NCBI GenBank assembly: GCA_051294375.1
Contig: CM119266.1
Location: 27,229,596-27,293,595, forward strand
Length of the DNA: 64,000 nucleotides
DNA from: Paraspadella gotoi
Lineage: Eukaryota; Animalia; Chaetognatha
Reading direction: 5' to 3'
Below, in pieces: positions 4,916-53,800 of this stretch. Below the pieces are notes generated by a model. It searched no databases, was not told where the DNA came from, and worked only from the letters and a program-made list of their open reading frames with translations. Every line of letters begins with the position of its first letter. Position 1 is the stretch's first letter. Both the position numbers and the translations under genes were made by a program.

Positions 4916-5257
4916 TGTATTTAATGATTACGTGCTTACAACAAACACAATCACTTTGCTCAGTTACTTTTCCCCATTAGACGTTGACGGCGATGAGTCC
5001 CGCCCGGCGCCCCGCTCTATCTGCTACGTTGCGAGGAGGCGCCCTTGTACCCTGATGCCGGGGAAAACGACAATGAACCAATGAAAGAAGACGAAGGAAA
5101 AAATTATACCATGTTTTGGGGATTGAAAAAAAATACGATGTCAGGTGTCGAATTGTTCTATATAGTATATACACCAAAATCTTTGGATCATGATGTCTAA
5201 TATCTAATTAGAAAATTAGGGCAGAAAGTAACTTTTACGTTTGTGTTGTAAAGATGC

Positions 5258-11500: not shown

Positions 11501-14500
11501 GTAGGGTGAGGTAAAGTGGGGGCGGGAGGGAACGAGGGGGGGGGACCATGGGGGGAAATGAAGGAGAAAAGGATCGGGACAAATGCGTAGGTTTAGGCAA
11601 AGTGGGGGCGGGAGGGAACGAGGGGAAGGGATCGGGGAGAAAGGATTGGGACAAATGAGTAGGGTTAGGCAAAGTGGGGGCNNNNNNNNNNNNNNNNNNN
11701 NNNNNNAATGAGGGCAGAGGGAACGGGAGAAAGGATTGGGACAAATGAGTAGGTTAAGGCAAAGTGGGGGCGGGAGGGAACGAGGGTGGGAGGGAACGAG
11801 GGAGGGGAACGGAGGAGAAAGGATTGGGACAAATGAGTAGGGTTAGGCAAAGTGGGGGCGGAGGGAAAGAGGGTGAGGGGAACGAGGGAGGGGAACGGGA
11901 AAGGGAGAAAGGATTGGGACAAATGAGTAGGTTTAGGCAAAGTGGGGGCGGGAGAGGGAACGAGGGGAGGGGATCAGGGAGAAAGGATTGGGACAAATGA
12001 GTAGGTTTAGGCAAAGTGGGGGCGGGAGGGAACAGGGCGGGGGAACGATGGGGGGACATGGAAAAGGATTGGGACAAATGAGTAGGGTTAGGCAAAGTGG
12101 GGGCGGAAAAGCGAAGAGTTCTTTCTCGAGGTTTTCATTGTAGGGTGGATGACGGAAAATATCACAGGGCCTCGCTATCAACCAGAACGGAGAGAAAGGA
12201 TCGGGACAAATGAGTAAGGTTAGGCAAAGTGGGGGCGGGAGGGAATGAGGGGGGGTAACGGGGAGAAAAGGATTGGGACAAATGAGTAGGTTTAGGCAAA
12301 GTGGGGGCGGGAGGGAACGAGGGTGGGAGGGAACGAGGGGAGGGGGAACGGGGAGAAAGGATTGGACAAATGAGTTAGGGTTAGGCAAAGTGGGGGCGGG
12401 AGGGAAAGAGGGTGGGAGGGAATGAGGGAGGGGAACGGGGAGAAAGGATTGGACAAATGAGTAGGGTTAAGCAAAGTGGGGGCGGAGGAAAGAGGGTGAG
12501 GGGAACGAGGGAGGGGAACGGGGAGAAAGGATTGGGACAAATGAGTAGGTTTAGGCAAAGTGGGGGCGGGAGGGAACGAGGGGAGGGGATCGGGGAGAAA
12601 GGATTGGGACAAATGAGTAGGTTTAGGCAAAGTGGGGGCGGGAGGGAACGAGGGCGGGGGAACGAGTGGGGGGGACATGGAAAAAGGATTGGGACAAATG
12701 AGTAGGGTTAGGCAAAGTGAGGGCGGAAAAAGCGAAGAGTTCTTTCTCGAGGTTTTCATTGTAGGGTGGATGACGGAAAATATCACAGGGCCTCGCTATC
12801 AAGCCAGAACGATGGAGGGAATGAGGGGGGGGGAATGGGGATAAAGGATCGGGACAAATGAGTAAGGTTAGGCAAAGTGGGGGCGGGGAGGGAACGAGGG
12901 GAGGGGACGGGGAGAAAGGATTGGGACAAATGAGTAGGGTTAGGCAAAGTGGGGGCGGGAGGGAAAGAGGGTGAGGGGAACGAGGGGAGGGGAACGGGGA
13001 GAAAGGATTGGGACAAATGAGTAGGGTTAGGCAAAGTGGGGGCGGGAGGGAACGAGGGGGGGGTAACGGGGAGAAAGGATTGGACAAATGAGTAGGTTTA
13101 GGCAAAGTGGGGGCGGGAGGGAACGAGGGTGAGAAGGGGGGGGAACGGGGAGAAAGGATTGGGACAAATGAGTAGGTTAGGCAAAGTGGGGGACGGGAAC
13201 GAGGTGAGGGGAACGAGGGGAGGGGAACGGGGAGAAAGGATTGGGACAAATGAGTAGGGTTAGGCAAAGTGGGGGCGAGGGGAATGAGGGTGGGGGGAAA
13301 CGAGGGTGAGGGAACTGAGGGGAGGGGAACGGGGAGAAAGGATTGGGACAAATGAGTAGGTTTAGGCAAAGTGGGGGGGGGGAACGAGGGGAGGGGATCA
13401 GGGAGAAAGGATTGGAACAATGAGTAGGTTTAGGCAAGTGGGGGCGGGAGGGAACGAGGGCGGGGGGAACGATGGGGGGGACATGGAAAAAGGATTGGGA
13501 CAAATGAGTAGGGTTAGGGCAAAAGTGGGGGCGGAAAAGCCGAAGAGTTCTTTCTCGAGGTTTTCATTGTAGGGGTGGATGACGGAAATATCACAGGGCC
13601 TCGCTATCAAGCCAGAACGGAGAGAAAGGATCGGGACAAATGAGTAAGTTAGGCAAAGTGGGGCGCGGGAGGGAATGAGGGGTAACGGGGAGAAAGGATT
13701 GGGACAAATGAGTAGGTGTTAGGCAAAGTGGGGGCGGAGGGAGACGAGGGGGGGGGAACGAGGGGAGGGGAACGGGGAGAAAGGATTGGGACAAATGAGT
13801 AAGGTTAGGCCAAGTGGGGGCGGGAGGGAAAGAGGGTGGGAGGGAATGAGGGGAGGGAACGGGAGAAAGGATTGGACAAATGAGTAGGGTTAAGAAGATG
13901 GGGGCGGGGAGGGAAAGAGGGGTGAGGGAACGAGGGAGGGGAACGGGGAGAAAGGATTGGGACAAATGAGTAGGTTTAGGCAAAGTTGGGGCGGGAGAAC
14001 GAGGGGAGGGGATCGGGGAGAAAGGATTGGGACAAATGAGTAGGTTTAGGCAAAGTGGGGGCGGAGGAGAGGGAACGAGGCGGGCGGGGGAACGATTGGG
14101 GGGACATGGAAAAGGATTGGGACAAATGAGTAGGGTTAGGCAAAGTGAGGGCGGAAAAGCGAAAAGTTCTTTCTCGAGGTTTTCATTGTAGGGTGGATGA
14201 CGGAAATATCACAGGGCCTCGCTATCAAGCCAGAACGATGGTGGAGGAATGAGGGGGGGGAATGGGGATAAAGGATCGGGACAATGAGTAAGGTTAGGCA
14301 AAGTGGGGGAGGGAACGAGGGGAGGGGATCGGGGAGAAGGATGGACAAATGAGTAGGGTTAGCAAAGTGGGCGGAAAGAGGCGGGGGAGGGGAACGAGGG
14401 AGGGACGGGGAGAAAGGATTGGGAACAATGATGTAGGGTTAGGCAAAGTGGCGGGCGGGAGGAACGAGGGGGGTAACGGGGAAAGGATTGGAACAGAGTA

Positions 14501-15235
14501 GGTGTAGGCAAAGGGGGCGGAGGGAACGAGGTGAGGGAACGAGGGAGGGAACGGGGAGAAGGATTGGGACAAATGAGTAGGGTGAGGCAAAGTGGTGGGC
14601 GGAGGGAACGAGGTGTGAGGGAACGGGGGAGGGGAACGGGGAGAAATTTGGACAAATGAGTAGGGTTAGGCAAAGTGGGGGCAGAGGGAATGAGGGGTGG
14701 AGGGAACGAGGGCGGGGGGATGAGGGGGGGAACGGGAAGAAAGGATCGGTGAAAATATAGTGGGTGAGGTAAAGTGGGCGGGAGGGAACGAGGGCGGGGG
14801 GACCATGGGGGGAAATGAGGAGAAGGATCGGGACAAATGCGTGGTTTAGGCAAAGTGGGGGCGGGAGGGAGGGGAAGGGATCGGGAGAAAGGATTGGGAC
14901 AAATGAGTAGGGTTAGGCAAAGTGGGGGCGGAAAAGCGAAGAGTTCTTTCTCGGGTTTTCATTGTTTGGAATTTGGAAGGACACGACGTGGGCATCTCTC
15001 TCTTTTCCCTCCCGCCCCCACTTTGCCTAACCTTACTCATTTGTCCCGATCCTTTCTCTCCGTTCTGGCTTGATAGCGAGGCCCTGTGATATTTTCCGTC
15101 ATCCACCCTACAATGAAAACCTCGAGAAAGAACTCTTCGCTTTTCCGCCCCCACTTTGCCTAACCCTACTCATTTGTCCCAATCCTTTTTCCATGTCCCC
15201 CCGCCCTCGTTCCCTCCCGCCCCCAACTTTGCCCT
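8552..15235. repeat. G-rich higher-order satellite (60-80-bp monomers) with inverted terminal segments
   Basis: Monomer GGATTGGGACAAATGAGTAGGGTTAGGCAAAGTGGGGGCGGGAGGGAACGAGG.... A ~90-bp marker (GGCGGAAAAGCGAAGAGTTCTTTCTCGAGGTTTTCATTGT...CAAGCCAGAACG) recurs near 9000, 9631, 10356, 10955, 12102, 12722, 13529, 14149 and 14927. Segment 15005-15235 is inverted. Confidence 0.95.
11682..11706. other. Assembly gap (25 N); others at 21844-21868 and 62205-62229
   Basis: Runs of exactly 25 N. Confidence 0.99.
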
Positions 15236-16356
15236 CACGCATTTTAACCTCGGCCCGAATTCCCTGGCGTTATTTTCCTTCGGATTCTAATCGCTTCACT
15301 TATCTTCTCATTGTTTCCTTCGTTCGTGTCGGGAACAAAAGGGAAAGGGATGAGGGCAGAGGGGTAAGGAGACCGAGAAAGGGGAAGAGGGGTAAGGATA
15401 CTAGGAAAGGAGTAAGGAGACTAGGAAAGCAAGGGAAAGGGGATGAGGGCAGAGGGGTAAGGAGACCGGGAACCGGGAACGTGCGGGGAGAGGAAAGGAA
15501 AGAGGAAAAGGGTAAAAAGAGGACCAAGGTTTAGGAGTCTGGGAATGAGGAAGAAGGAAGAAAAAGCGAAAAAATAAGACACTTCAATACGAATTTACAA
15601 AATCAAAAAACATGGGGGTTTGCCCAATGAAGGAAAAAGTGGGTAAAAAACCGATCATGATAACAATTGCTTCTGAATATTGTAAAAAAAACGGAAAGGA
15701 GATGTAATGAAATCAAACTCGATTGAATTTTATCCCATTAAAAGTATGAATCGGATTCTAAGAAATAGAATTAGGAGTGAGAAAAAAAGAGGAAAAAAAA
15801 AACAGAATAAAGAAGAAGAAAGAAATAGAAAAATAGCGTCGAATAAAAGGGAAACAGTTTCTTTTGTCGAAAATAAAAAGGACCGAGTGGAAAGGCCGAG
15901 GAGCGGAACGGGTAAGGCCAAGGGGCCGAGTATTGGAATCGATGAGGCCGTCGAAGGCTGCCGTTTGGGTCAGTTTTAAAAAGGGAACAAAAGAAAGCTT
16001 TTGCGAATGTAAAAGGCAAAAAAATAGCCACCATATGTTTTCGAAACGCCACGAAATCTCAGTTATATTTTTAATATTATCTTTCGCTCAACTTTTTTAA
16101 TCTCCATGGCTACAGAGCCGCGTCCGGTAGCGGCTTCCACCGCAACCAGTAGACCCGCATTTTCTGGGCGGAAAGAAGAAAAACTTCGGCTGGCCTTCGA
16201 CATTTAATAGAAAAAGAAAAAAAAAAGAAAACTAGAGAGAAAAGAGGGGAGAAAACTGTGAAGTGTGAGGAGGAAGGGCGAGAGAGAGAAAAGGGTTAAG
16301 GAAGTGAGAGAAAAAAAATTTTAGCTCCGATTCCCACCTCGGGTTTGATAGCCACT

Positions 16357-16845: not shown

Positions 16846-16978
16846 GCAGGGACCTGCTATGTCATTATCTTGTAAGAGTGATGGAGGCCTTAAACCACCA
16901 AAGCCTGTCCAAAGTCAGGGGCAAGATAGCTTATTTATTAAATGAATGGATAATTTTTATATTGGTTGTACCAATTTC

Positions 16979-17041
<63 letters not shown>
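16846..17041 (+). mobile_element. Family-D twister-bearing short element with (TAA)n tail
   Basis: About 138 bp identical to 40372-40509, followed by a (TAA)n tract. Confidence 0.85.
16866..16928 (+). ncRNA. Twister ribozyme, type P5, no P3 (family D); predicted cleavage 16891/16892
   Basis: TATCTTGT-AAGA-GT-GA-TGG-AGGCCT-T^AA-AC-C-AC-C-AAA-G-CCTG-TCCAAAGT-CAGG-G-GCAAGATA. P5, P2 and P4 pair; TGG pairs with CCA in L4; AC pairs with GT in L4. Confidence 0.8.
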
Positions 17042-17042
<1 letters not shown>

Positions 17043-18111
17043 TAAAATAATAATAATTTAATTTAATTGAATATCTATATTCATATCTAGTGAGCTGCTG
17101 AGCAAAAAATTAATTCAACGTAATTTCTCTGTTTATAAATGTAATCGTATTTTCCTTCATCGACGATATGTTGATAATCGCAAAGTCATCGTTCCTCCTC
17201 GTCGCATTTAATCAGCGACGCTTCTTCACCTACGAAATTTATAATATGAAATTTAAATCTAATCGGTAACATCTCTTTATATATTCATATTCATATATTA
17301 ATTAATTTAAAAATTTTCTTTGTTAACAGAGGTTTAAAACATAAATGTAATTATAAACTAAACTTTTTAATATAAAACAATTTAAAAATATAATAAAACA
17401 AGTAATCATGTAACTTTCACAATACATAGACTCATAGTCATAGTGTTTCAGTCAATAATTGTCCTCTGCCAACCACCCCCCCCCCCACTTTCAGTCTTGC
17501 ACCCCGATTCCGCATCTCACCCCCGCCACCCAACTTCCTGCCCCCGTTGTGTTTCCCTTCATTATTGTCGCGGTCGTCGGCCTCTTCTTCGTCTTTGTCT
17601 TCGTCGTCGTCGTCGTCGTTGTCGTCGTCGTCTTCATGGAGGTCACCGCCCGATAAAATATACGTCCGGAGATTATATTGCGTCAGACTTTAGATAATAT
17701 GGCTCGAATCAATTTATAATTTTTTTATATTATTAAGGACGTCGTAGTCCAAAAAAAAAAGAATTTTACAACCAAAATAAACTGCCTGAGATGTCAAAAA
17801 TATCTTAGGACTGGCGACAACAACAAGACCCAAAAAGACGACATCCTCTCCCACGACCTCTGTGCTCCTTCCCTCCCCGGAATCTCGTCATTCGACGTCC
17901 ATGATGAAAATCCGCAGACAAAAGGCGTCTCAACCGAACTCCGTCGCCGGATTAAGTATCTCGATAAAAAGTTTCCGGCGGAAAATGAAACGGGAGATGA
18001 ATTTGGGATCCGAACGGAAAGAGAATGAAGAATGAATTGGGATGAACGATAGAATGGAAACGAATGGAGAATTGGTGAATGAGTGAATTGATTAAGTAAA
18101 TGATGTAATGA

Positions 18112-18327
18112 TAAGTGTTAATGACAGAACCGTTCAATATATAAGCAGTTCCTGAGCTTCGGATCAGGTTGTAACACCTAGTTACAGGCGGGTTAAGCGC
18201 CCCGTCCCTCTTAACTGCTCGGCGGCCACCGGGCTAGAACCCCGGATCTTGGGGTTGGGAGGCGAATGACTTGCCTCCGGCACCAATGGCCGCTGATGGA
18301 GTGTTGGTGGATTTTAGTCCACCATAG
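18112..18327 (-). mobile_element. Family-B element: hairpin + tRNA-Gly-like module (18222-18293) + type-P5 twister (18145-18218)
   Basis: Minus strand TGGTGGACTAAAATCCACCA...GCGGCCA-TTGGTGCCGGAGG...CTCCCAA...CCGGGGTTCTAGCCCGG-TGGCCGC-CGA-GCAGTTAAGAGGGACGGGGCGCTTAACCCGCC...TCCGAAGCTCAGG...TGAACGGTT. Confidence 0.85.
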
Positions 18328-19939
18328 TATTAAAAAATTTTAATTAATTTAAAAAAAAAAAACTGAAAATACAGTCAAGTAAAGACGAATAAATTTTACA
18401 AAAAAAGCCAGTGAGGAAAAAAGTGTAATGACTTTTGCATGTAATTAATATTCGATGAATTTTTAAATAAAGAAGATTCAATATATGTCGAGAAATAACT
18501 CAGAAAAATACAGTACTAATCGTAATGTGTTTTGAATAAAAAGTCGAGAAATGACTTAGAGATTTAAGGAACTTGAGATTTTTTTGTTCGTGACGCTTCA
18601 TTTTAAATTTTCTGTGGGCCGAGATCCGGAAAAGCGATTTGCCCCTGTCTTCCGATTTTCACTAATCGGCCATTACACTGAAAGTCGCTCCTCGTTTGTC
18701 GTCTTTGTCGTCTTCATCCTCATTCTTCGTTGTCGTCGGTGTCAGATAATGGAGAGCCGCTGCCGTCTTCGTTAAACGTCGTCGTTATCGTCGTCATCTT
18801 CGTCGTCGCTGACCTTTTTAAAAGAAAATATTTTATCATCACCTCGGAAAGACAGTTTCCTGTCGTCGTTGTCGTTTGTCGCCGAAGTTGTACTATTGTG
18901 GTTATCATTTTAATTATCTTCGTCGTCGTTGTCGTCATCGTCATCGTCGTCGTAATATGCATACTGCATAGTCGTCGTGACCATTACCTTTGGAGGAGAC
19001 TCGTTTTACTTGGAATTGATGGCTCCTTCTTTTTGGGCTGTTGTCTAAAGAAAAGAAAAGAAAAGAAAAGAAAAGAAAAGAAAAGAAAAGAAAAGAGAAG
19101 AGAAGAGAAGAGAAGAGAAGAGAAGAGAAGAGAAGAGAAGAGAAGAGCAGAGCAGAGCGGAAAGAGCTTTGACTTTGAGTAGAAAAATTACAAAGTGCAG
19201 AGCCTTTAATCATATTATTATTAATATAGAAATTAAATTAAGTTTTTCAACTATAACTACTACCGGCCATTGTATATAAGCAGAGGATCTGCAACGAAAA
19301 CGTAAAAAAGTATCGTCGAAAATTTTTCCACGCTCCTGAAAATCCCGACAATTCTGAGTTCCTACTTTACGGCGACTCCTCGGCTCCACGCCTACAAATG
19401 CTCGTCGTTTTCGTTGTAAAAAGGATTTGATGACAATGGTCGATTCGTCTTTGTCGTTTTTATTACCGTCACAAATGTCGTTTTCTTCCTCAGCCTTGTC
19501 ATTCTTTTTTCCCTATATTGAGTCACCTAACTTATTTTCTCATTAAACCATAGAGTAGAATTAGTAGAATTAAAGTAATGTCTTAAAATTTAGTTAAACT
19601 AGTTATGAGTAATTTAAACTTTCGTACAAATGAATCTCCGAGAAAAGATTCATTTATTAAATTATAAGATATAGTTGCTTTTGTTATTTTACTTAAACTC
19701 TTTCTTCTTTTTTATTTCTTTTCCTTCTTTTCTTCCGCCATCTTTTTCTCTTGAAAAAAGGTTCTTTCGGTCGATGCACCTGCGACGAATAAATGCATTT
19801 CTTTGGATTTATTTTATTTTCTTGTCTTGTATCAAATTTCTGAATTCAGATAAAGGAGTCAATACTTAATACAAATGCTGTTTTAGTTTAATTTCATGAA
19901 AAGGTACTATACAACTTTATTCAATGTCAGAGAATATTG

Positions 19940-20053
19940 ACTGAAAGCTTGAAGAGGCCTTAACATAAACACAGGCCGTCTAAAGTCAAGTGGAAGCTAA
20001 TAGCTAATTTATTGTATGAATAGATAAATTTTTTTTGGTACCACTTTCATATT
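19940..20053 (+). mobile_element. Diverged/deleted family-D-like element (duplicate at ~26190-26305)
   Basis: GAGGCCTTAA...TCTAAAGTCAAG and a tail ATGAATAGATAAATTTTTTTTGGTACCACTTTCATA resemble family D, but the core is disrupted. Confidence 0.55.
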
Positions 20054-20388
20054 CCACTTGGAGCAGCATCCAACTGGTCTTTTCCTTTTCCTCCTTCGCC
20101 TCCAATTCTGTTTTGCGGCGGCAACCAACTGATGGCATCGATTGATGGCACCGTTTCCGCCACCAACTATTTCCCTTTGAATTAGAGACGAGGAACGGAC
20201 AATAAAGATTCGGCCCCGCGGTCGGTTCGGAAGAAAAGGGGGGAGAGTTGGGGGGAGGCGGAGGAGGGATAAGAGGGAAGGGGAAAGGAAATGGTTAGAG
20301 AGAAGACTAGAGTAGAGTAGAAAAGAAAGTCGAGAACCTTTTAAAGGGACCTAGGAAGTCGAGAGTCATTCCTAGAAATAGAATAGTA

Positions 20389-21000
20389 CTATCTAGGAAA
20401 AAAGTTAGAGACATTTTTTTTTAAAAGTTCATTTATTCAATAAAAAATATACAAAACATGGGTAAACATTCTCAATATTTGGTATGCCCTCCCTCGGCAT
20501 CGACCACTGCCTGCATTCGTCTGGGCATGCTCTCGTAAAGCGAATTTGAGGTACGAAGGTGAAATGTTTTTTCCACACCTTTAGCGCAATTTTTTTCAGC
20601 CCCGATGTTGATGTTCCAAGTCTATTGCTGATGATTGTTGCGTCTTTCCCTCTTTTCTCAGAGCTACAATTGCACCTTATGAACCAAAGAGAGGGGCTGT
20701 CTATTCGGCATAACCAAATTTAAAAAATGAAAAAAATAATTAACTCAATTTGAAATAAAACAAATAACTCAATACCAAGATTGTGGAAAACTAAGGCGAT
20801 TTTTTCCGCCATTTTTCACTTGAGGTAGCAATCTTATTTTGCCTCTAACTTCTATACGGTTGGATCTACGAAAAAATGGAAAGGGAGCACTGAAATGAAA
20901 TTTAGTGTAGAATCTGAAACATCCTGATTTTTTATAAAATCGAGCAAGTTTTCGAGTAGATATCCTCAATTAAAATGTTTCTAACTTTTTTCCTAGATAG
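20389..21000 (-). mobile_element. Non-autonomous Tc1/mariner internal-deletion derivative
   Basis: TIRs CTATCTAGGAAAAAAGTTAGA(G/A)ACATTTT with TA on both sides. The minus strand encodes the Tc1 transposase C-terminus LYESMPRRMQAVVDAEGGHTKY* joined to an N-terminal MPNRQPLS...AIVALRKEGKT fragment. Confidence 0.9.
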
Positions 21001-21941
21001 TAGAATAGCGAGAAATGCCGTTTTGCAAGGAGTCAGATTGCAGTTAAAGTTAAAAAATCAGAAGTCGTAAATTAATATGGATATCTAGCTTTTGAACCCC
21101 GTCACTATCCTATGATATACATATCTATGATAAATATCTTTTGCTAAAAGTTTTGTTAGCCAAAATATAAATCGTTTGCCCCGCACTGTATTCTTTTTTA
21201 TAGGCGTAATCAGTAAATAAAGATTCGTCTGATCTTTTATCATTAAACTGAAACCTCAAGACGCGCCTCCACCGATTAATTTTTAACCCGACCCACAGCT
21301 CCTTCCACACCATGCCCCCCACACCCCCTCCACACCCCAACGTCATCGCCCACGATTCCTCTTGTCCTCGCGAGATCAAAAGGTGAAATGGAGATAAATG
21401 AAATTTGGCTCAATCATTATCGGGATTTATTCTCTCGCCCACTCTTCATCAAAAAAAAAGAAGAGAGGGAGAGAGAGGAGAGAGAGAGAGAGAGAGGGAG
21501 AGGGGTTAAGTCGAGTGTGGCATTTTTGATTTTTAAATATCATAGTTTGTGATGAGGGATTAAAATACTTTACCTATTTCATGTAAATAAATTAAAAAAT
21601 TAAAGATATTAAATCATTGGTTGAGGAATAAAAAACGTTGCGCGGAGATGAACAGTCATTTTATTAAAAAAGTATCTGGGTTGAAAAAGAAAATTCCGGG
21701 CAGAATCTAGCAACGATTTATTTAATAGAAGCAATAAAACCCGGAGCATGAAATTCGCAGTTCGGTTTAAGCGAGAATCCTTTTTTCAGAGCGCAGTTCT
21801 GTGGCCTTTTTAATTGTGGCTTTTGTTTTTCTTTTTCTTTAAANNNNNNNNNNNNNNNNNNNNNNNNNATGAAGAGATCAGGGGCAAGAGAGCTTATTTA
21901 TTAAATGAATGGATAATTTTTTATTTGGTTGTACCAATTTC

Positions 21942-21972
<31 letters not shown>

Positions 21973-21978
21973 TATATA

Positions 21979-22016
<38 letters not shown>

Positions 22017-23096
22017 TAATTAAATAATATAATTTAATTTAATTGAAAATATCTATATTCATATCTAGTGAGCTGCTGAGCAAAAAATTATTCAAACGTA
22101 ATTTCTCTGTTTATAAAGTAATGCGTATTTTCCTTCATCGACGATATGTTGATAATCGCAAAAAGTCATCGTTCCTCCTCGTCGGCATTTAATCAGCGAC
22201 GCTTCTTCACCTACGAAATTTATAATATGAAATTTAAAATCTAATCGGTAACATCTTCTTATATAATTCATATTCATATTATTAATTAATTTAATTTTCT
22301 TTGTTAACGGAGGTTTAAAAACATAAATGTAATTATAAACTAAACTTTTAATAATAAAACAATTTAAAAATAATAATAAAAAAACAAAGTAATCATGTAA
22401 CTTTCACATACAATAGACTCATAGTCATTAAGTGTTTCAGTCAATAATTGTCTCTGCCACCCCCCCCCCCCACTTTCAGTCTTGCACCCCGATTCCGCAT
22501 CTCCACCCCCGCCACCCCAACTTCCTGCCCCCGTTGTGTTTCCCTTCATTATTGTCCGCGGTCGTCGGCCTCTTCTTCGTCTTTGGTCTTCGCGTGCGTC
22601 GTCGTCGTTGTCGTCGTCGTCTTCATGGAGGTCACCGCCCGATAAAATATACGTCCGGAGATTATATTTGCGTCAGACTTTAGATAATATGGCTCGAATC
22701 AATTTATAATTTTTTTATATTATTAAGGACGTCGTAGTCCAAAAAAAAAGATTTTACAACCAAAATAAACTGCCTGAGTAATGTCATATCTAGGACTGCG
22801 ACAACAACAAGACCCAAAAAGACGACATCCTTCTCCCACGACCTCTGTTGCTCCTTCCCTCCCCGGAATCTCGTCATTCGACGTCCATGATGAAAATCCG
22901 CAGACAAAAGGCGTCTCAACCGAACTCCGGTCGCCGGATTAAGTATCGTATAAAAAGTTTCCGGCGGAAAAATGAAACGGGAGATGAATTGGGATCCGAA
23001 CGGAAAGAGAATGAAGAATGAATTGGATGAACGATAGAATGGAAACGAATGGAGAATTGGTGAATGAGTGAATTGATTAAGTAAATGATGTAATGA

Positions 23097-23313
23097 TAAG
23101 TGTTAATGACAGAACCGTTCAATATATAAGCAGTTCCTGAGCTTCGGATCAGGTTGTAAACACCTAGTTACAGGCGGGTTAAGCGCCCCGTCCCTCTTAA
23201 CTGCTCGGCGGCCACCGGGCTAGAACCCGGATCTTGGGGTTGGGAGGCGAGATGACTTGCCTCCGGCACCAATGGCCGCTGATGGAGTGTTTGGTGGATT
23301 TTAGTCCACCATA
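23097..23313 (-). mobile_element. Family-B tRNA-like/twister element (duplicate of 18112-18327)
   Basis: Near-identical copy inside the duplicated segment. Confidence 0.85.
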
Positions 23314-23559
23314 GTATTAAAAAATTATTTTAATTAATTAAAAAAAAAAACTGAAAATACAGTCAAGTAAAGACGAATAAATTTTACAAAAAAGCCAGTG
23401 AGGAAAAAAGTGTAATGACTTTTGCATGTAATTAATATCGATGAATTTTTAAATAAAAAAAGATTCAATATATGTCGAGAAATAACTCATGAGAAAAAAA
23501 TACAGTACTAATCGTAATGTGTTTTGAATAAAAAGTAGAGAAATGACTTAGAGATTTAA

Positions 23560-24858
23560 GGTCGGGATCACTCAATTCAATTATAATTTAGGCTAAAACC
23601 AAGCATCGGATTTCGAAAGGAGAGCTCCCTGACGATTCCGAAAAATGTATTCACTTTACTATTTTTTTCAAAGCGTCATCGTTTTTTCGATTTTTTTTGT
23701 ACTATATAAAATAAAAAAACCTATTTGAAGAGTTTGCAGATCAAACGGTAAGGCGGTTTCTCATGAAATTTGGCATGAATTATCTTTAGTCACGGGACTC
23801 CAATTCTATGAAAGATCTTTCAAAATTTGCCTTCCTTCATATGAAAATTTATTATTTAGTCAATTTTTGGATTAATTCCTTGATATCTTTGAACGAAAAA
23901 AAGTTTTCCAAAAAAAGCGCTCATAGAATCTTCCCACCTTTCCTTTCTTGCCCAGATATTTTTTTTCTTCAAGAAGAGTCCCAGTTGAGCTGCAACTCTC
24001 TTCGTTTTTAACTTCTCTTCGTCAAGAAAGTTAAATTCTGTACTCATACTCTGCAAGATTCACCACAACATACACAAACAGGATGTGATGATGGGTTGTT
24101 CAACGCGATTCTTAAAAAAAAACGGCTTACGTTTTTAAATTCTTATCCAGTTTTTTGTGGACTAAACGCCACAACCGTTCTCAGCGCCATTGTGCTGGAG
24201 GCAAGTCATTCCTCAACCCAAATCGGTTCTAGCCCGGTGTGTACTGGCATTAGAGGACGGCGCTAACGCGCTGTAACATGGATGTTAAGCCTGATCTCGA
24301 AGTCAGGGACTGCTTACATTGAACGTTCTATCACTAACCATAAAATAATTACTGTCTTTCAGTTTGATTTTTTTTTTTCAGCAAGATTCCCTAGAAGAAA
24401 TAGGGCAACTATAAACATTTACATAAAGTAAAAAGTCAAATGAAATAAATTGGATAAGTTTTTAACCTCATTAAAACTCATAAAAGCATAAAAACCCGTC
24501 TGGAAAAATGTGTAGATAGTTATTTTAAGACTTATTAGTGATACAACTCCAAGTACGGTTACTTGCACAAAAGAAAATTGAAATATAAGAAGTAGAAATT
24601 GGAGCTTGCTGTAAAGAATCAGTTTTTAAGTTAAAAATTTGGTTGTAAAAATTTACCTTACATTTTAAAAAATATTTTTCTCTTGAAAATCTAGTTTTTG
24701 CCGAAGAAAAGAATTTGTTTAAATTTTTATGAACATTTTAGGTAGATTTTTAAAAGTTTTCAAAGATTTTTAATAGAAAACCTCTTATGGGACGCGAGAA
24801 ATGAATTAATATACATTAAATTGAGATTTCTACAATTTTAGGTTGAGTGATCCTGGCC
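23560..24858. mobile_element. 1.3-kb non-autonomous TTAA-targeting DNA transposon (Kolobok-like termini)
   Basis: TTAA|GGTCGGGATCACTCAA ... TTGAGTGATCCTGGCC|TTA. The empty site GATTTAAGGAA is visible in the other copy at ~18561. Termini are purine GG rather than the piggyBac CCC. Confidence 0.75.
24155..24340 (+). mobile_element. Degenerate family-B element nested in the TTAA transposon
   Basis: GTGGACTAAAC...AACCGTTCTCAGCGCCATTGTGCTGGAGGCAAGTCATT...GAGGACGGCGCTAACGCGCTGTAAC...GAAGTCAGGGACTGC...TTGAACGTT. Confidence 0.75.
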
Positions 24859-26640: not shown

Positions 26641-27246
26641 CTATCTAGGAAAAAAGTTAGAGACATTTTTTTTTAAAAGTTCATTTATTCAATAAAAAAT
26701 ATACAAAACATGGGTAAACATTCTCAATATTTGGTATGCCCTCCCTCGCCATCGACCACTGCCTGCATTCGTCTGGGCATGCTCTCGTAAAGCGAATTGA
26801 GGTACAAGGTGAAATGTTTTTCCACACTTTAGCGCAATTTCTTTTCAGCCCCGATGTTGATGTTCCAAGTCTATTGCTGATGAATGTGTGCGTCTTTCCT
26901 CTTTTCTCAGAGCTACAATTGCACCTTATGACCAAGAGAGGGGCTGTCTATTCGGCATAACCAAATTTAAAAAATGAAAAAATAATTAACTCAATTTGAA
27001 ATAAAACAAATACTCAATACCAGAATTGTGGAAAACTAAAAGGCGATTTTTTCCGCCATTTTTCACTTGAGGTACAATTCTTATTTTGCCTCTAATTCTA
27101 TAGTTGGTCTAACGAAAAAAATGGAAAGGGAGCAACTGAAATAAGAATATGTAGAAATCTGAAACATCCTGATTTTTTATAAAATCGAGCAAGTTTTCGA
27201 GTAGATATCCTCAATTAAAAATGTTTCTAACTTTTTTCCTAGATAG
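26641..27246 (-). mobile_element. Tc1/mariner deletion derivative (duplicate of 20389-21000)
   Basis: Same TIRs, TA flanks and transposase C-terminal remnant. Confidence 0.88.
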
Positions 27247-40454: not shown

Positions 40455-40972
40455 GCTTATTTATTAAATGAATGGATAATTTTTATATTGGTTGTACCAA
40501 TTTCATATATATATCTCACATGAAACTTATGGTTTCTGCTTTTCTTTCGATTTTTTTTACCACTTGGTGGCAGTTATTGTTTTGTAATTTGTTTACCTTT
40601 CGCTGTTTTTAATTTTTATTTTTAAAATTTAGTTTTCTAAGCGTGTCATATTTTGAACTATTCGTCTTCGTCATCGTAGTAACTTTCTCGATCATGACGC
40701 CTAATGGCCGACGACATGGTTGCCGTCGTCGTCGTCGTCGTCATATATTCGTCCTCTTCATCTTCATCTTCGTTGTCGTCGTCGTCATGATCGTCGTCAT
40801 ATTCGCCAGTCTTCGATATGATCAAAGTTCGTGATCCATCAGCCTCTCCATTTCTCTTTCCATTTCGCGGCGCCGATCTTCTCTTCAGTTTTTCTCCTCG
40901 CATACAAAATTAATTATGTACAATATTAAACATTGTGAAGAGACATTAATTATTGTTATGTGTTCAATATAA

Positions 40973-41046
40973 GCAGTCCCTGAGCTTCGGATCAGGCTGT
41001 AACACCGTGTTACAGGCGGGTTAAGCGCCCCGTCCCTCTTAACTGC
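40973..41046 (-). ncRNA. Twister ribozyme type P5 (family B, cleanest copy); predicted cleavage 41023/41022
   Basis: GCAGTT-AAGA-GG-GA-CGG-GGCGCT-T^AA-CC-C-GC-C-TGTAAC-ACGGT-GTTACA-G-CCTGA-TCCGAAGC-TCAGG-GACTGC. All stems pair, as do both pseudoknots (CGG/CCG, GC/GC). Confidence 0.85.
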
Positions 41047-42471
41047 TAGGCGGCCCACTATGATCGAAGTGAACGTTAGAATCGGAAAAATTATACAATG
41101 GCATATTCAGATAGCTTAACCAGAGTAATTCTTAAAAACTTTAGAGGTTCTTCTCATAAAATATTAATATTTCCAAAAAGGACAAAAATGTAACATTTTA
41201 TTTTTTTACGATTCCTAAAGATGACCCGAACGCTACAATATTTTTTTTTAGCTTGTTTTAATTTTTTTCCCTCTCAAATACGGTAAAACAAAAGTTTAAA
41301 GAGCAATTTGATCCAATCAGTTAAGCGAGGAAGTTAATAGTGCTAACGTGTTTTTAGCTACTAATTTTTGAAAAGGATAGAGGAATCAAAATAGAGATTG
41401 AGTAAAATTATTAATTAAAGTTTACAAGATGTTTTTTTTTTGGCATTTTTGTTCTTTTAAAGAAAATGTTTGTTAGGTTCAATCCATTTATTAAATTTAA
41501 GACATCAAAAAGTTTAACTAGATTTAATGTAAAAATAACGATTTTTTTCACAGACTGCTTAATAAATCCAAAAATGTTTTCAGCTTGATATTAAACAACT
41601 GAAAACATTTTTGGATTTATCATTTTTCATATTTATAGAAGATTCTTACAGAGAATTTCGCCTCACTGTGATCGTCAAATAAGAATTTCCCAAAAGTCTA
41701 AACGTTTATTCTCGGTAACTGACGTGGCAAATATGAGACAAATGTAATAAATATTTTATCTTAAATGATTTTGAAATTTCAAATGTCAAATTTCTAATCA
41801 ATATTTTTACACAATCAATTCTTTGAAGTCCAATATTCATGATTACTTATATTTTTTTCCTCTCTCTCTGTCTCTCTCTGTCTCTGTTCCTTTATTATAC
41901 CAAATTTACAATTATTTTATTTAAAAAAAAATTACTTACGTCTTTGTCATGAAGACAATTTAGTTATCTTAACCACTTCAAAATAATTTACTTAGTAAAT
42001 AGTATCGAAGTGTTAGAAAAAAAATATATGAAAATCATTTTGACATTTACTCATTTTGCGGATCGTTGCGGATGAAATCCGGAACACATCAAGTGCGTTA
42101 TAATATTAATCATTATATTTAATAAGAATGGTAGTGATTCCCCATGATTCCCTAAATATTCTAAGCTAGTTTTCAAAAACTCAGATACAGTAAAACCTTT
42201 TTAGAACAAATTTGTATTTTATCCATACTAGGTATCCAGTTGTTTATCAAGATTTTAAAAAAAAGTAAATTCATCATAAAGTTCCTGGAATATAGCTCGA
42301 CAAAGTGAGTCTGAAATAGAGAAAAGCCTTATATCTCCTAAAGAAATGATTTTTGACAACTGATATTGCTTGAGAGGTTTCCGATGATAGTCACTAATTA
42401 ATTAAAAGCATATATATTTTTGTACGATGAACTAACCTTATTCCGATAAAAAAAATTATTTTGATGATAGT

Positions 42472-42890
42472 GCGGCCACCGGGTTAGAACCCCGGACCTT
42501 TGGGTTGGAAGGCGAATGACTTTCCTCCGGCACCAATGGCCGCTGATGAACGGTTGGTGGATTTTAGTCCACCATACATCCCCCCTACCGTAGGGAGAAG
42601 TCTGTTGCTTCTCTTCAGTGAATTGTTGTTGTTGGTGGAAAGTGCGTCACCAAGTTGATGCATGTCGCCTGATGTGTTGTTGGCGGAAAGTGCATCGCCA
42701 GGTTGAGGCATGTTGCCTGAAAGTGTTGTTTTTGCTGTTGTGTTTGGAAGTCGACTTGTGTTTGGAAGAGACTATGGCAACAGCCGGGTTGCCTGTGATG
42801 CCCCTTTGGGATGGGGCATCTCACTGTTGGCTTTGGGGGCTTCCGACTCTCAGTGACACCTCCAGTCACTGGCGCGGTTACCCTAGGACG
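42472..42890 (-). mobile_element. Composite element: family-A twister (5'-truncated) + spacer + family-B hairpin and tRNA-like module
   Basis: The minus strand runs continuously from GTCCTAGGGTAACCGCGCCAGTGAC...TCGGAAGCCCCCAAAGCCAAC through a CAA-rich spacer into TGGTGGACTAAAATCCACCA and GCGGCCA...TGGCCGC. Confidence 0.85.
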
Positions 42891-43505: not shown

Positions 43506-43625
43506 GTACTCCTTAATTATACTATGTTTGTTCACTCAAATAAAATTTATGTTCCCCAGTGCTCAACTCTATTACTCATCATAGCCTGACGAAAGTCAGC
43601 TGCAAGTTAGCTCGTTTATTGAATG

Positions 43626-43865
43626 AACGCACTTTCCACCAACAACAACAATTCACTGAAGAGAAGCAACAGACTTCTCCCTACGGTAGGGGGGGATGTA
43701 TGGTGGACTTAAATCCACCAACCGTTCATCAGCGGCCATTGGTGCCGGAGGCAAGTCATTCGCCTCCCAACCCAAAGGTCCGGGTTTCTAACCCGGTGGT
43801 CGCCTAGCAGTTAAGAGGGACAGTGCTCAGGGACTGTTTATATTGAACGGTTCTGTCACTAATAC
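43626..43865 (+). mobile_element. Family-B element with spacer tail, tRNA-like module and internally deleted twister
   Basis: ACGCACTTTCCACCAACAACAACAATTCACTGAAGAGAAGC... matches the spacer of 42472-42890. It continues into the tRNA-like module, GCAGTTAAGAGGGAC|AGTGCTCAGGGACTG (core deleted) and TTGAACGGTTCTGTCA. Confidence 0.85.
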
Positions 43866-43904
<39 letters not shown>

Positions 43905-43906
<2 letters not shown>

Positions 43907-44510
43907 AACAAACATTAGGAATACCAATTGGACTAGATTCTGGTCAAATATTGCCAATATGTTGTTATTTTATTTTGAATCAACATATATGGAAAATATG
44001 TCAAAAAATATCTAGGAATCACTAGACAATTTAAAAATTTCAAGATATATTGATGACCTTTTTTCGGCAGATTTTAAGGATTTTAAAACACATCTTGATA
44101 AAATATCCAGCAGCACTTACTGTCAATAAATCTAATAGTATAGACACAAATGTAGATTATTTAGACATTAACATCAAATCAGAAAACAAAAATCTTACTC
44201 TTTCTGTATATGATAAAAGGGATTCCTTTTCTTTTGAGGTAGTGAACTACCCATTTATGGACAGTTGTATTCCTAGAAAAGCAGCATTAGGTGTATTTAT
44301 TAGCCAATTAATTAGGTATGCCAGAATATGTTCAACATTTATAGATTTTTCATCGAGAGCAATAAATATTAAGCAAAAAATTACAAAGTCAGGGTTATAT
44401 ATTTAAGGACTTAAGAAAAATGGGAATTAAATTTTTTAATAATTATAAGGAAATACTAAAAAATATAATTTTACTGATGTTAATCTATTTTTTTAAAAAG
44501 ACTATACATG
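43905..44510 (+). pseudogene. Decayed Penelope-like element reverse transcriptase, C-terminal part (Naiad/Chlamys-like signature)
   Basis: QTLGIPIG (RT motif B), SRYIDDLF (YIDD at 44046-44057), then after a frameshift DYLDINI...VYDKRDSFSFEVVNYPFMDSCIP...GVFISQLIRYARICS. Frameshifts and stops are present. Confidence 0.85.
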
Positions 44511-46221
44511 ATAGTTCCTAGTAAAAATATTAAATAATAACAAAATTAAACCACTTAAAATAATAATAATAATAATAATAATCATCAACATACTATTTAT
44601 TTAACTTATTTAACTTATTTAACTCTTTGATGTAACTTATTTTTTAAATTATACTAATTAACTTTATGTTAACTTTACATTAACATTCCCTTGATTATTA
44701 AAATATTATTTAACTAATTTTTTAACTTATTTAATTATTTACAAAGTACAAATTATTGCAAAACCTTAATAAATTTCCCTAAAATTAATAATGCTGTGAT
44801 ACCAGGGCTTTGGTCTGTGTAAGATAAACATTAAAAATATATCCTTAAAAAATAGGATAAGCAACAATGAAGGATCACCATTTGGTGATGGCTCGCCTAT
44901 ACCTGGATATTGGGATTAAAGAGCCGAAATCCATGAAGGGTATAGGTTCAAAACTGATGACCTTCCCATTGTATAAACATAATAGATAAAAGATATTCAG
45001 AAATAGAATAATTAAAAATTAGGATAAAGGAAAAAATTATTTTCATTAAAGTATTTTAAAATTATATCATGACATAAAGGTGCCCCTATAGACCTTTCCC
45101 AGTATGTATCCCTATCAGAACATACAATTCTACTTTGTAGTCTTATCCCTATTAGTTTTTTAAAAAAATCATATATAACTTTGGTCCCCCATCAAAAAAT
45201 TATCCATTCCCACCCCTTTCTGTTCAGCCTATTAGATATTATGATTTTTCATTAATGACTTTCTAACAGGAATGATGTGTGATATCTATTAGAAAACTAG
45301 GACAGATTGTAATCTAACCTTGTGTTGTGTAGATGCTCCCTCTATTTCCAGAAGACAACACTGACTTCCCATTCCCAAAATGAGTTATTAGATATAATGA
45401 TAAGTAAAAAATTTTAAGAAAGCAATATATATATATTTAAAGAATATAGATTAAATGGTAAATCTTTCATAAAATATAAAAATAAAAAATAAAAAATAGT
45501 GAAACAAGTAATTTGAAAATTTTCATATCAATAATTACTGTCTCATCAAATGGATAATTTGTAATTTGTACTATTAGTATATATTAGAATAAGTTATTCT
45601 ATAATACTCCGAACAAGGCTGAAATTTTTTTGTTACATGATATAAAACGCTAGCATGAAGAAAAAGTTAGTTTTGTGGTATGACGAGGAAATGATATTTG
45701 TACTAGAATTATGGAGGGAGAATTTTTCAGGTTGAGTCGAGGAATGAAATAATCTGGATCCGATGAGTGAGAAAGAGCAAAAAAAGGTAATATTTACTAA
45801 TTGTCGAAGTCCGGAAAAGAACGACTTTCAGATACATTGAAATAAAATATTGTAAAGTGGTAAAGCGGGGTTTTCAAGAGAAGGGGAATGCAAAGAAAAT
45901 AATCCCAAAAGGTAGGCAATGAGAAAGGAGGTGGATTAAAAGAGAAGAAAAAGGGAGCAGCGCCTCTCGCGGATGTCCTCGTCATTATCATAATGGGAAA
46001 AGAAAACATATGAACACGAGTCCGAGGGAAAAAAGGGAAATCCGTTGAGGGCAGGGAGAAAAGGGAGGAAGAAGAAAATTCCTGAAAAAGATATGATGGG
46101 AGAAAAGAAAATAATGGAGGAAAAAAAAATCGCTCGCTGCGATCGGGGAAAGTGAAAAGGAAATTGCAGAATGAGGAAGAAATGTGTAAGTTATAAGGCC
46201 CATTGGGTTGGGCATCTCACT

Positions 46222-47478: not shown

Positions 47479-47680
47479 TTATGGTGGACTAAAATCCACC
47501 AACCGTTCATCAGCGCCATTGGTGCTGGAGGCAAGTCATTCGCCTCCAACCCAAAGGTCCGGGGTTCTAACCCGTGGCCGCCTAGCAGTTAAGAGGGACG
47601 GGGCGTTAACCCGCTGTAACATGGTGTTACAGCCTGATCCGAAGCTCAGGACTGCTTATAGGTTCTGTCATTAACACATA
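47479..47680 (+). mobile_element. Family-B tRNA-like/twister element (1-nt deletions, possibly read errors)
   Basis: TATGGTGGACTAAAATCCACCAACCGTTCATCAGCG...GCAGTTAAGAGGGACGGGGCGTTAACCCGCTGTAACATGGTGTTACAGCCTGATCCGAAGCTCAGGACTGC. Confidence 0.85.
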
Positions 47681-48369
47681 TCAATAATTACTGTCGCTTC
47701 AATATTTTAGTATTAACTATTAATAGTTGTTCACTCTAGTTTAATTTGGTCAAATATTTGAATTTATAGCAGTCACACCAGTGTGACATCAGGGTAACAA
47801 AAGCGTGGAATCAAATGTCAGCTGCATGTCTAAGATTTCAACAACAAAGGGCGAGGTCTTAACCTCGAGGAAAAACGTTACTATTTCTTTTTCGGCTCAA
47901 ACGCGATGATAATGAATAATTAGGAAAATTTAAATGGATATAAATATGAACAATAAGATATAAATGGCCAAAACTACGACTAGGAGTGTTTATTTTCTTA
48001 TTGAGTTATTCTTTTGCGAGTTGTGATCGAATACAAATGAAGAGAAAGAGAAAGAGAGATAAATCGTTTGGGTTTCGCGACCCCCGATTGTTTTCTCCTT
48101 GTCGCGAAGATCTGTCGAGACGTCGACCTTACTGCCTCTGTCGCTCTCTGTCTTTCTTTTTTTTCCCCCCTTCTTTTCTTTTCTTTATTTTCCCCCCTCT
48201 CTCTCTCTCTCCCCCATCGACCCCAAGAAAAGCTTGATCCCGCACGACCCTTGAAAACAGATTCGGACAATCATCCTTTGCATATTTTACACTCAACGTT
48301 CATTCAGTCTCACCATAACTTACCTATCTCTCTCTCTCTCTCTCTCTCGTAGGCAAATTACGGATCAAA

Positions 48370-51872: not shown

Positions 51873-52280
51873 CATAATTTATCATAATTCGATGTTCTGA
51901 CATGATATAAGCGAATGCCCGACAAGATTGAGGGGGCGGACCGACGGACCGACAAAGTGAATTATAGAGCCGGGATCTGCTGAAAGCAGATCCGACTAAA
52001 AAGCAAGCGTTTTGTATTTTTTTATCGTAAATATTTTTTAAAATAATTTTTAGATTTTTGCCAAATATGAAAATATGCAAAATTACCAGTTTTACTTTTT
52101 TCATATCTTTTAATGACGCCCATGTACGAGATCATAATACGGAACGAAAAAAATGCAGGTGATGTCCGCAAATTATCTAAATAAACCGACTTACATTCAG
52201 AAGAAAAATAAAAATCAAAGAAAATAAAAAAAAATATAAAAAAATATATTGAAGAGATAGTAATTATTTTATGTTGTTAG

Positions 52281-52420
52281 TGGACAGACCGTTCAATATA
52301 AGCATCCTGAGCTTCGGATCAGCTGATACACCGTGCTACAGCGGGTTAGGCGCCCGTCCCTCTCTAACTGCGAGCGACCACCGGCGCTAGAACCCAGGAC
52401 CTTTGGGTTGGACGAGCGAA
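52281..52420 (-). mobile_element. Noisy family-B copy (twister + partial tRNA-like module)
   Basis: GACCGTTCAATATAAGCATCCTGAGCTTCGGATCAG...CCCGTCCCTC...AGAACCCAGGACCTTTGGGTTGG. Confidence 0.75.
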
Positions 52421-53800
52421 TTTCAATGATTAGAATTCATTTCAAAAAGTTACAATATTCATCATGTTAACCTAATGTCTCCTGGGCAATCTCCTAAAAG
52501 TTTAAAATTTCTTGCCCCTTTTATACTTATTTGAAAATTAAATAGACAATTAAAAACGACTTTTACTTTTGAGAATACTAACCAATAATTGGATCAGAAA
52601 GGTCTCGTCCAATCAGAATAAAGAACCAAATATTAACCAATGAAATCATGGAATAGAGGACGAGTTTGAGATTTAAAGCTACTAACGTTATTGGTATTCT
52701 ATATAAAACCGAATATTAATTTCGAAAATTAATTTATTATTTATAAACTATTTAACATAACATAACTTTCGATAGAACTGTTGGGGATTCGAATCTTTCA
52801 ATACTTTACCCCGAACAAACTGACATTGACTATGCTATTCAAGCCTATTCTATTTAAGGTTCATTACTACTTTTTCTTCTTTAATCCTCCTCACCTTAAC
52901 GGGTTTTTAATCCTAAATGATGCAAGTTGAAAAAAAATTATTAGTGCCACAGTAACAGTTCAGCTTAAGCCCTTGAAAGCGATTTACATGTATTGGCGCA
53001 GCTACTGGTTCTTCGAGTAACCGAAACTAACCATCGCTCTCCACCTTATTTTCCTCTTTTTATCTCTACTTCTCTCTCTCTCTTCTTCCCCTGTCTTTTC
53101 GTCAATTAATGACTGCTGTATAGCGATGAAAGGCTGACAGAATAATAAAAGTTAACGAAAAAAAACATGTTATCACATCCCTGACTCAACCTCTAACTCG
53201 TTCCACATCCCTGTTTCTTCCTTAACCCGTCCATAACGAAAAGCTTTAACAACGACAACTCTTAAAATAAAAGGAAAACCACTCAAGTTTCCACCAAAAT
53301 ACCAATGCGCAAGAAAAATCCATGGGTTCTCCCCTCCTTGCGCTTACCCAGATGCCACCTTCCTCACGAGCTCACGACCTCTTCCTTTCGTTTGATGAGG
53401 TTTCGTCGAGGTTTCACTTAAACCTATCGATATCAGATAATCAATTCATTTTCGTGTCACTATGTCGATAATTTGAAATATCATCGCAAACTTACGTTAA
53501 AATTTCGTAATGTACATACAAACCCATCAATTTTAAATATTTGGATATCAAAAAGATCACCCAAAGACTCCTGAATCGTTTTAGGAATATAATAATAATA
53601 TGATATAATATAATATATAATAATATAATACATTGCCTCTCTCTCCTCCCTCCCCCCCTCTGACGTCTAACCGAGAATCGAACCCATACAATCGTTTTTC
53701 CCCTGTTGTCGTTTGGTGTAAACAAAAGACGAGGTTTTAACCGAAAATCGATACTTTCGATCGGGAAGAAAACGAGAGAGAGAGTGAGAGAGAGAGAGAT

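Follow-up and report, generated by a model that had tools for sequence, protein, structure and literature searches.

A newly described, probably ribozyme-bearing and non-autonomous retroelement uniting a tRNA-like unit, a twister-type fold and a tail shared with a Naiad

The stretch of DNA analysed here, whose whole length of 64 kb is referred to as the window, carries copies of a newly described, probably ribozyme-bearing and non-autonomous retroelement of about 240 nt, in which a tRNA-like unit, a twister-type fold and a tail shared with a Naiad retroelement are united. The family is abundant, its ends are fixed, its modules follow one another from a head hairpin through the tRNA-like unit and the ribozyme-type fold to an AC/AT-rich tail, and this tail recurs at the end of the region behind a neighbouring RT fragment assigned to the Naiad type. 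As to its mode of life, the balance tilts slightly towards a non-autonomous passenger of the Naiad RT, one likely to have an internal Pol III promoter and to carry a twister predicted to cut only when dimerised.

Copies, ends and abundance of the element

The window consists of animal-type, microsatellite-rich DNA with 39% GC and three 25-nt gaps, and copies of repeats within it are distinguished by many small indels. Genome-wide statements made below refer to contigs of four public runs (X1, X2, X5 and X9) over two stretches of the window, and their summed depths are orders of magnitude, not copy numbers. Other repeats in the window include a long G-rich composite satellite at 8500-15500, with units of 71-90 nt and a longer periodic insert, and a GC-rich dispersed repeat (5257-5506, 42774-42890, 46198-46425 and 55234-55273) with stable predicted hairpins, one copy of which folds with z of -2.0 and -2.9 on its two strands.

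BLAST and nhmmer searches revealed eight copies or fragments of the element on both strands of the 64 kb (Table 1), of which seven are independent given that the 18k and 23k copies share a near-duplicated block, in keeping with the about seven copies counted in the preliminary description of this DNA. The block (16915-21620 / 21878-27872, 94-95% identity, with an N gap between its halves) is probably an assembly duplicate, since the flank depth at 18 kb equals single-copy depth. All the modules named in that description were recovered in place on the minus strand. Truncations in the window are mixed and without a 5' bias, two copies being 5'-truncated and three having lost 3' sequence, and the window majority sequence, built from seven copies after dropping the 23k copy as a duplicate, amounts to 237 nt. 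None of the eight window copies is arranged head-to-tail. Two copies, at 42472-42647 and 43627-43803, stand head-to-head about 1 kb apart and share 72 nt upstream, which resembles the inverted arrangements of PLE insertions. As for target duplications, the best repeats found around the two full-length copies measure 4 and 6 nt and lie in AT-rich flanks.

Table 1. Coordinates of the modules, the window copies and the neighbouring Naiad region
Feature	Position	Strand	Remarks
Head hairpin	18305..18324	-	7 bp, 6-nt loop; TA precedes at the 5' end
Enclosing stem, 5' arm	18297..18305	-	9-bp stem; three private changes in the 18k copy
tRNA-Gly-like unit	18221..18293	-	Acceptor (7 bp) and T stem (5 bp) preserved; D and anticodon stems disrupted
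A-box-like motif	18274..18285	-	One mismatch, removed by a minority variant at 18279
B-box-like motif	18232..18241	-	One mismatch
Twister-type fold opened at P5	18145..18218	-	Type-P5 order; layout as in Table 1 of PMC8501958
P5 strands	18218-18213 and 18150-18145	-	Twister fold
General-base G	18206	-	Twister fold
Pseudoknot strand	18204-18201	-	Twister fold
Palindromic linker replacing P1	18196..18201	-	Predicted inter-copy pairing: 4 Watson-Crick pairs, 6 with G-U ends
U-AA	18195-18193	-	Twister fold; followed by short P2
Predicted cleavage site U/A	18194..18195	-	105 nt from the family 3' end
GC	18189-18188	-	Twister fold; followed by P3
P4, 8-nt loop	18168-18151	-	Twister fold
Enclosing stem, 3' arm	18128..18136	-	18k copy
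Start of 3' tail, AC/AT-rich	18106..18127	-	18k copy
18k copy	18106..18326	-	Element of about 240 nt; family tail incomplete, lacking its final ~21 nt
23k copy	23091..23313	-	In near-duplicated block; probably assembly duplicate of 18k
24k copy	24155..24362	+	Full length, heavily degraded
40k copy	40936..41055	-	5'-truncated; cleanest twister and tail
42k copy	42472..42576	-	3'-truncated; head and tRNA-like unit
43k copy	43699..43870	+	Twister core deleted; ends where the shared tail would begin
47k copy	47480..47704	+	Full length, small deletions, complete tail
52k copy	52243..52421	-	5'-truncated, with tail
Naiad-type Penelope-like element, 5'-truncated: broken RT fragment from the C-terminus	43906..44506	+	
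Multicopy non-coding 3' region after the Naiad RT	44507..45553	+	By depth
26-nt end of the Naiad region	45524..45549	+	Matches the element tail at 25/26

In the three DNA runs the median summed depth of the element exceeds that of its flanks 2.0e4 (X1), 1.5e4 (X2) and 3.3e4 (X5) times, corresponding in order of magnitude to roughly 10^4 copies, and run X9, guessed to be RNA, shows an element-to-flank depth like that of the DNA runs. Depth in X1 falls from 229,946 to 3,895 between the bins ending at 18327 and 18345, and because this drop lies just beyond the head hairpin, the family starts at that hairpin, 33 nt upstream of the tRNA-like unit. The earlier remark that conserved sequence extends upstream of the tRNA part, unlike in a classical SINE, was thus correct, the extension being 33 nt by the depth edge. 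At the opposite end, loose ends at 18109 reveal about 21 nt more of 3' tail than the 18k copy carries, and both ends of the element read TA. Loose ends listed at the two termini are heterogeneous, and no tandem signal emerged from the joints listed (15 of 39), none of which goes back, the reference copy being without the tail end. Core positions of the element show minor variants of the CpG type only. Over positions 18199-18301, such CpG-type variants are several-fold higher in X2 than at the same positions in X1, X5 and X9.

The 18k copy folds with z = -4.3, with none of 200 shuffles folding as well, and the window majority with z = -3.6. In the majority fold, eight of the nine pairs of the enclosing stem reach probabilities of 0.81-1.0. 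A perfect 9-bp inverted repeat with arms more than 100 nt apart arose in 41 of 2000 shuffles, so that the 9-bp stem taken alone is only moderately significant. It had been claimed that the 5' arm is mutated in the 18k copy and intact elsewhere, and intact arms were indeed located at 43720 and 47501 on the plus strand and at 42547-42555 on the minus strand. No copy in the window combines an intact twister with both intact arms, as the 43k copy has both arms with the twister deleted and the 47k copy has lost part of the 3' arm. Genome-wide, the intact 9-bp enclosing stem is the majority form, with the majority letters at 18299, 18301 and 18302, which rebuild the 5' arm, accounting for most of the depth in all four runs. 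A family beginning at the tRNA 5' end with an unconserved stem, the outcome named in advance as fatal to the module, was hence not what was found, given the upstream start and the majority stem.

The tRNA-like unit and the twister-type fold

The tRNA-like unit very probably has its origin in a tRNA. Its acceptor, its T stem and its broken anticodon stem were found as first described, whereas the T loop turned out to be one base off the canonical register. In the majority fold, the acceptor stem has pair probabilities of 0.98-1.0, and its two commonest variants, at 18225 and 18222, convert G-C to G-U with pairing kept. ARAGORN at its default threshold made no tRNA call, the Rfam gathering scan of the window returned no matches, tRNA included, and even at E <= 10 no Rfam tRNA match was obtained at the element; a true tRNA gene was hence rejected, with the full cloverleaf not rising above the detection threshold of ARAGORN or Rfam. 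With relaxed ARAGORN settings, three of the four tested copies were called, namely the 42k and 43k copies as tRNA-Gly pseudogenes and the 18k copy as a Gly/Trp pseudogene, with the 47k copy uncalled, and the thresholds of these three calls were reached by 0, 1 and 4 shuffles per 2000. The closer resemblance of the unit is presumably to eukaryotic tRNA-Gly, and blastn against phage sequences gave only matches with E >= 2. An HDV-like reading of the unit was rejected by eye, due to a misfit of strand order and of the GG junction.

Scoring with the consensus patterns of the A and B boxes placed one candidate for each within the unit, and a transversion at 18279, present at 4.5-12% of depth, supplies the A missing from the A box. 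No T4 run occurs inside the 18k or 47k copies. Judged from the sequence, a tRNA-Gly-derived internal Pol III promoter is plausible and is treated here as putative. The fixed 5' end of the family lies 41 nt upstream of the A box, and a type-2 Pol III start usually lies nearer to the A box than this.

The ribozyme-type fold was stated earlier to begin 3 nt past the acceptor stem, and it does so, running from 18218 to 18145; its derivation from a twister is held with high confidence. The U-AA cleavage loop with the opposing general-base G-A is present, as are both pseudoknots, one GC/GC and a longer one from L4 with three Watson-Crick pairs plus a G-U pair in all five descriptor matches. P3, P4 with its 8-nt loop closed by an A-U pair, and P5 are likewise present, with pair probabilities of 0.93-1.0 for P4 and P5. 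No catalytic or pseudoknot position is disrupted, and these positions are compatible with one another; no covariation was detected within the family, and comparison by eye with the S. mansoni rows reveals a double change in the pseudoknot, from C to G in the loop and from G to C in its partner. P2 consists of two clean pairs and a mismatch or bulge, as against the twister norm of 3-4 pairs, and an intramolecular P1 is absent, its place being taken by a 4-nt palindromic linker. Natural twisters tolerate an imperfect P1 and P2, and P1 has been reported as dispensable (PMC11662667). A twister descriptor, written after the sequence had been seen, matches five places in the window, all of them copies of the element, and was matched neither by any of 100 shuffled windows nor by any of 20000 shuffled versions of the 81-nt piece; in the remaining three copies the motif is absent, deleted or overly degraded. 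Rfam twister models gave no match even at E <= 10, and Rfam E-value scans of 17900-18500, 40955-41065 and 44500-45600 yielded none or only unrelated weak matches.

The palindromic nature of the linker is newly recognised here, having been missed in the preliminary description; the chance of a 4-nt linker being palindromic is 1 in 16. In the predicted monomer, a competing hairpin covers the pseudoknot strand with pair probabilities of 0.98-0.99 and P2 has a probability of about 0. An active-like monomer lies 8.1 kcal/mol over the minimum, and a domain-swapped dimer, which is nested and shares a 6-bp P1, lies 4.5 kcal/mol over two misfolded monomer minima, pseudoknots being counted in neither value. 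The calculated best cofold differs from this swapped dimer (-70.7 vs -52.7 kcal/mol). In PLE hammerheads a palindromic short stem accompanies cutting as dimers (PMC6765202). On the strength of these folding models, a dependence of cleavage on dimers is predicted tentatively, with confidence just short of even.

Shared tail and the neighbouring Naiad retroelement

The RT fragment of the window matches no Pfam family, and 46 of 217 candidate proteins proved to be homologues of it at E <= 0.001. All four homologues scanned carry an N-terminal GIY-YIG, and the DKA motif with a C-terminal RT is present in all four that were inspected, CxC in three of the four. Naiad elements are defined by an N-terminal GIY-YIG, the DKA and CxC motifs and the C-terminal RT (PMC8557442). 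By its sequence relatives, the neighbouring fragment is thus classed as Naiad-type, the motifs being scored on homologues as the window carries the RT end alone.

The match between the tail of the element and the end of this Naiad region is newly found, the earlier reading having missed it, and no position of the Naiad 3' region was matched at 23/26 by any of 2000 shuffled tails. From the RT through the bin 45487-45549, depth is that of a multicopy sequence (7617 in X1, 35253 in X2 and 484 in X5), and it is single-copy from 45613 on (about 26, 204-242 and 0-12, respectively), with a single-copy contig beginning at 45524. Because depth drops just after it, the tail is the end of a multicopy unit that contains or follows the RT. 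It could instead end a different short repeat, since the RT and the tail are never bridged by one contig and the depth between them is jagged. Beyond the tail, the Naiad 3' region and the element have nothing in common. The 43k copy runs into (TA)n and then into a Naiad fragment, and adjoins them exactly where the shared tail would begin. Mobilisation of the element by Naiad is considered probable.

The twister is not derived from the Naiad copy in the window, since the 3' region of the latter has hammerhead-like blocks instead and no twister. These hammerhead core blocks, at 44866-44971 on the plus strand, occur in a non-standard order (site, GAAA at 44926, CUGAUGA block at 44954) at a depth that exceeds the RT depth about tenfold, and hammerhead stem I would be completed by the majority changes at 44950-44951. 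Further downstream, at 45046-45423 (plus strand), depth is far above that of the RT, up to 227,414 vs about 3,000 in X1, suggesting another abundant non-autonomous derivative. Another dispersed repeat, which terminates in (TA)n or (TAA)n (4844-4914, 16846-16983, 21878-21946, 40372-40509 and 43577-43627), has an end that resembles the bases just past the Naiad end at 45549, and may be the 3' terminus of a further Naiad family.

Proposed life cycle, rival readings and related elements

In the proposed life cycle, transcription would be driven from the A and B boxes of tRNA origin. Since the 33-nt head precedes the usual Pol III start, a copy standing alone should be unable to renew it, and productive copying would instead proceed from a read-through transcript of tandem units, or from a circle made from it. 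In a single RNA the twister would be off, with P1 unable to form and the pseudoknot strand hidden by the competing hairpin. Adjacent units would pair via the palindrome and release an RNA of unit length in permuted order, possibly circularised by a host ligase, and the 9-bp stem would keep the tRNA part and the ribozyme joined while leaving tail and head free. The Naiad RT/endonuclease would nick AT-rich DNA and start at the shared tail about 105 nt past the cut, and copying of one unit would give dispersed, promoter-clipped monomers with TA at both ends. Such terminal TA fits a tail-to-head junction copied once around, and a TA target preference explains it equally. A dimer-dependent twister combined with a tandem or circular template would resolve both the problem of copying the head and that of self-truncation. 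Since neither a tandem among the eight window copies nor a tail-to-head joint among those listed was observed, we infer rather than observe such source loci or circles. This is the main weakness of the scheme, and the lack of a 5' bias in the truncations also speaks against it. Precedents exist in the schistosome Pol III hammerhead elements, which need tandems (PMC6765202), and in a Poseidon PLE, for which the RT was found to start 85-92 nt after the ribozyme cut, with AT-rich DNA as its target (PMC11167929). Against the scheme, insertion in vitro did not need ribozyme cleavage in the Poseidon study (PMC11167929). A stronger and more doubtful version of this scheme holds that the twister is a natural obligate double ribozyme that senses tandem copy number in a Naiad-dependent, tRNA-promoter 'SINE', such that tandems would be cut and circularised and monomers spared.

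In the strongest rival reading, a SINE-like monomer is spread through linear transcripts of full length by the RT of Naiad or of another element; the twister would be what remains, without activity, of the end of some retroelement, and the head the product of read-through or of an unusually far upstream start. It accounts for the dispersed monomers and the lack of any visible tandem, and for a ribozyme predicted to misfold in the monomer. Judged by the CpG-type minor variants at its core positions, the family is young enough for the core to be intact without selection; it has also been argued that a SINE would be truncated by a ribozyme active behind its RNA-derived head (PMC5786205). A 5' end fixed beyond the usual type-2 Pol III start, catalytic and pseudoknot positions that are all intact and compatible, and a palindrome occupying the exact position of P1 leave this reading unlikely, though not negligible. 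Besides a Pol III promoter, the preliminary description had suggested another possible role for the tRNA-like unit, namely that of a mimic cut by RNase P/RNase Z or bound by tRNA ligase and coupled to self-cleavage. The preservation of 7/7 acceptor and 5/5 T-stem pairs next to broken D and anticodon stems, the pairing-neutral variants at 18225 and 18222 and the near-certain acceptor pairing in the majority fold are what such a mimic would show. The genomic ends do not support this proposal, as they coincide neither with a tRNA end nor with the predicted cut; in addition, the register of the T loop is shifted and cuts at the tRNA ends would part the head from the unit-defining tail, leaving processing mimicry improbable.

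Two readings that dispense with a Naiad-driven RNA passenger receive even less credence. A non-autonomous Helentron (HINE), moving by rolling circle on the plus strand after capture of tRNA-like and ribozyme-like DNA, would agree with the layout of 9-bp inverted repeats and an end-adjacent hairpin on that strand (PMC4067079) and with the finding of no clear target duplication. Its repeats should, however, measure 12-15 rather than 9 bp, the distal one should lie 2-4 rather than about 40 nt from the end, and the hairpin 8-35 rather than 2 nt from it (PMC4067079); ends reading TA, not TT, as well as the unexplained Naiad tail and intact RNA folds of the other strand, render a HINE quite improbable. 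Solo LTRs of a Helenus-type TRIM with tRNA-like sequence within the LTR are suggested by TG and CA near the two ends and by conserved sequence upstream of the tRNA part, which Helenus likewise has (PMC10886601). But conserved bases reach past TG and CA, no 4-5 bp duplication was found at the TG/CA junctions of the two full-length copies, no two-LTR form occurs within the window, and the tail matches Naiad, so that this origin appears very remote indeed.

Among known systems, the element works like Sm-alpha and the animal retrozymes while lying outside both by their defining features. Similar to the schistosome Sm-alpha and Sj-alpha elements, it is short and non-coding, with a Pol III promoter, putative in its own case, preceding a self-cleaving type of ribozyme, and its lone copies are expected to lose propagation (PMC6765202); it differs from them in having a twister instead of a hammerhead, dispersed monomers with fixed ends instead of visible tandems, and a tail shared with Naiad (PMC6765202). 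With animal non-LTR retrozymes it has in common a non-coding ribozyme unit (170-400 nt in retrozymes) and a proposed derivation from PLEs, and dimer-dependent cleavage is known in some of them; retrozymes, however, are characterised by a type I hammerhead and tandem repeats (PMC7229834; bioRxiv 10.64898/2026.07.22.740005). The element shows neither feature among the window copies and the joints listed, has a twister layout without any Rfam hammerhead match or type I hammerhead, and contains a tRNA-derived part. Its 3' end, its AT-rich/(TA)n context and its inverted neighbouring copies are like those of Naiad PLEs (PMC8557442), although it has no ORF; the Naiad paper reports no canonical hammerhead, and its main text is without the words 'twister' or 'SINE' (PMC8557442).

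All core blocks of type P5 twisters and of the T-variant twisters of S. mansoni Perere-3, which are also retroelement-borne, are present, and in P2/T1/P3/L4 the S. mansoni rows are strongly resembled (PMC8501958). In contrast to the Perere-3 twisters, which occupy the 5' end of an RTE LINE, that of the element is opened at P5, has its cut in mid-element, lacks an intramolecular P1, has a short P2 and gives no Rfam match (PMC8501958). Helenus TRIMs share the embedded tRNA-like Pol III promoter and the conserved upstream sequence, but have two LTRs, PBS/PPT and target duplications of 4-5 bp, and no ribozyme is described for them (PMC10886601). A tRNA-derived SINE would be comparable in its A/B-box segment and its partner-shared 3' tail, with the differences that the partner here is a PLE, not a LINE, and that the element starts 33 nt before the tRNA-derived part.

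Neither a Naiad-dependent, tRNA-headed element nor a palindrome-dimerising twister was encountered in the literature searched, to which Repbase and subscription journals are external; the supplement of PMC11662667, which covers twisters of about 1000 organisms and also lies outside that search, might already include the motif. Relatives of the element in another species were not found in the metagenome, viral and genome contigs searched: the 25-nt twister pattern had 0 matches in metagenomes, viral sequences gave 0 matches, and 11 metagenome matches to the 18-nt hairpin, which extend over at most 23 nt, were set aside as chance. Naiad loci were confirmed in none of 34 candidates from viral contigs and in one of 15 from genome contigs, which is a distant RT. 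This Naiad-like RT (L012:133-2640) sits in a short contig of a Gammaproteobacteria MAG, probably as host contamination, and is followed by about 1.1 kb that look protein-coding by eye; only unrelated weak Rfam matches were obtained there and no similar element was seen by eye. In the published Naiad consensus file, in which line breaks can hide matches, the 15-nt tail motif and the 14-nt P4 motif had 0 matches, and shorter motifs, with 1 and 8 occurrences, were discarded as lacking a twister context by eye.

The proposed life cycle would seem to solve the problem posed by a tRNA head joined to an intact ribozyme, which should cut itself, and by an internal promoter that cannot copy the sequence upstream of it. 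If true, a dimer-gated twister would also be usable as an RNA switch. The purpose of PLE ribozymes was left open by the in vitro study of a PLE (PMC11167929), and the element, should the reading proposed here be correct, would offer, at 240 nt, a substrate on which the reason for ribozymes in PLEs could be tested. The RNA signal required by the Naiad RT would, on the same condition, narrow to about 26 nt, and parasites that use Pol III would extend from LINEs and LTR elements to the Naiad PLEs.
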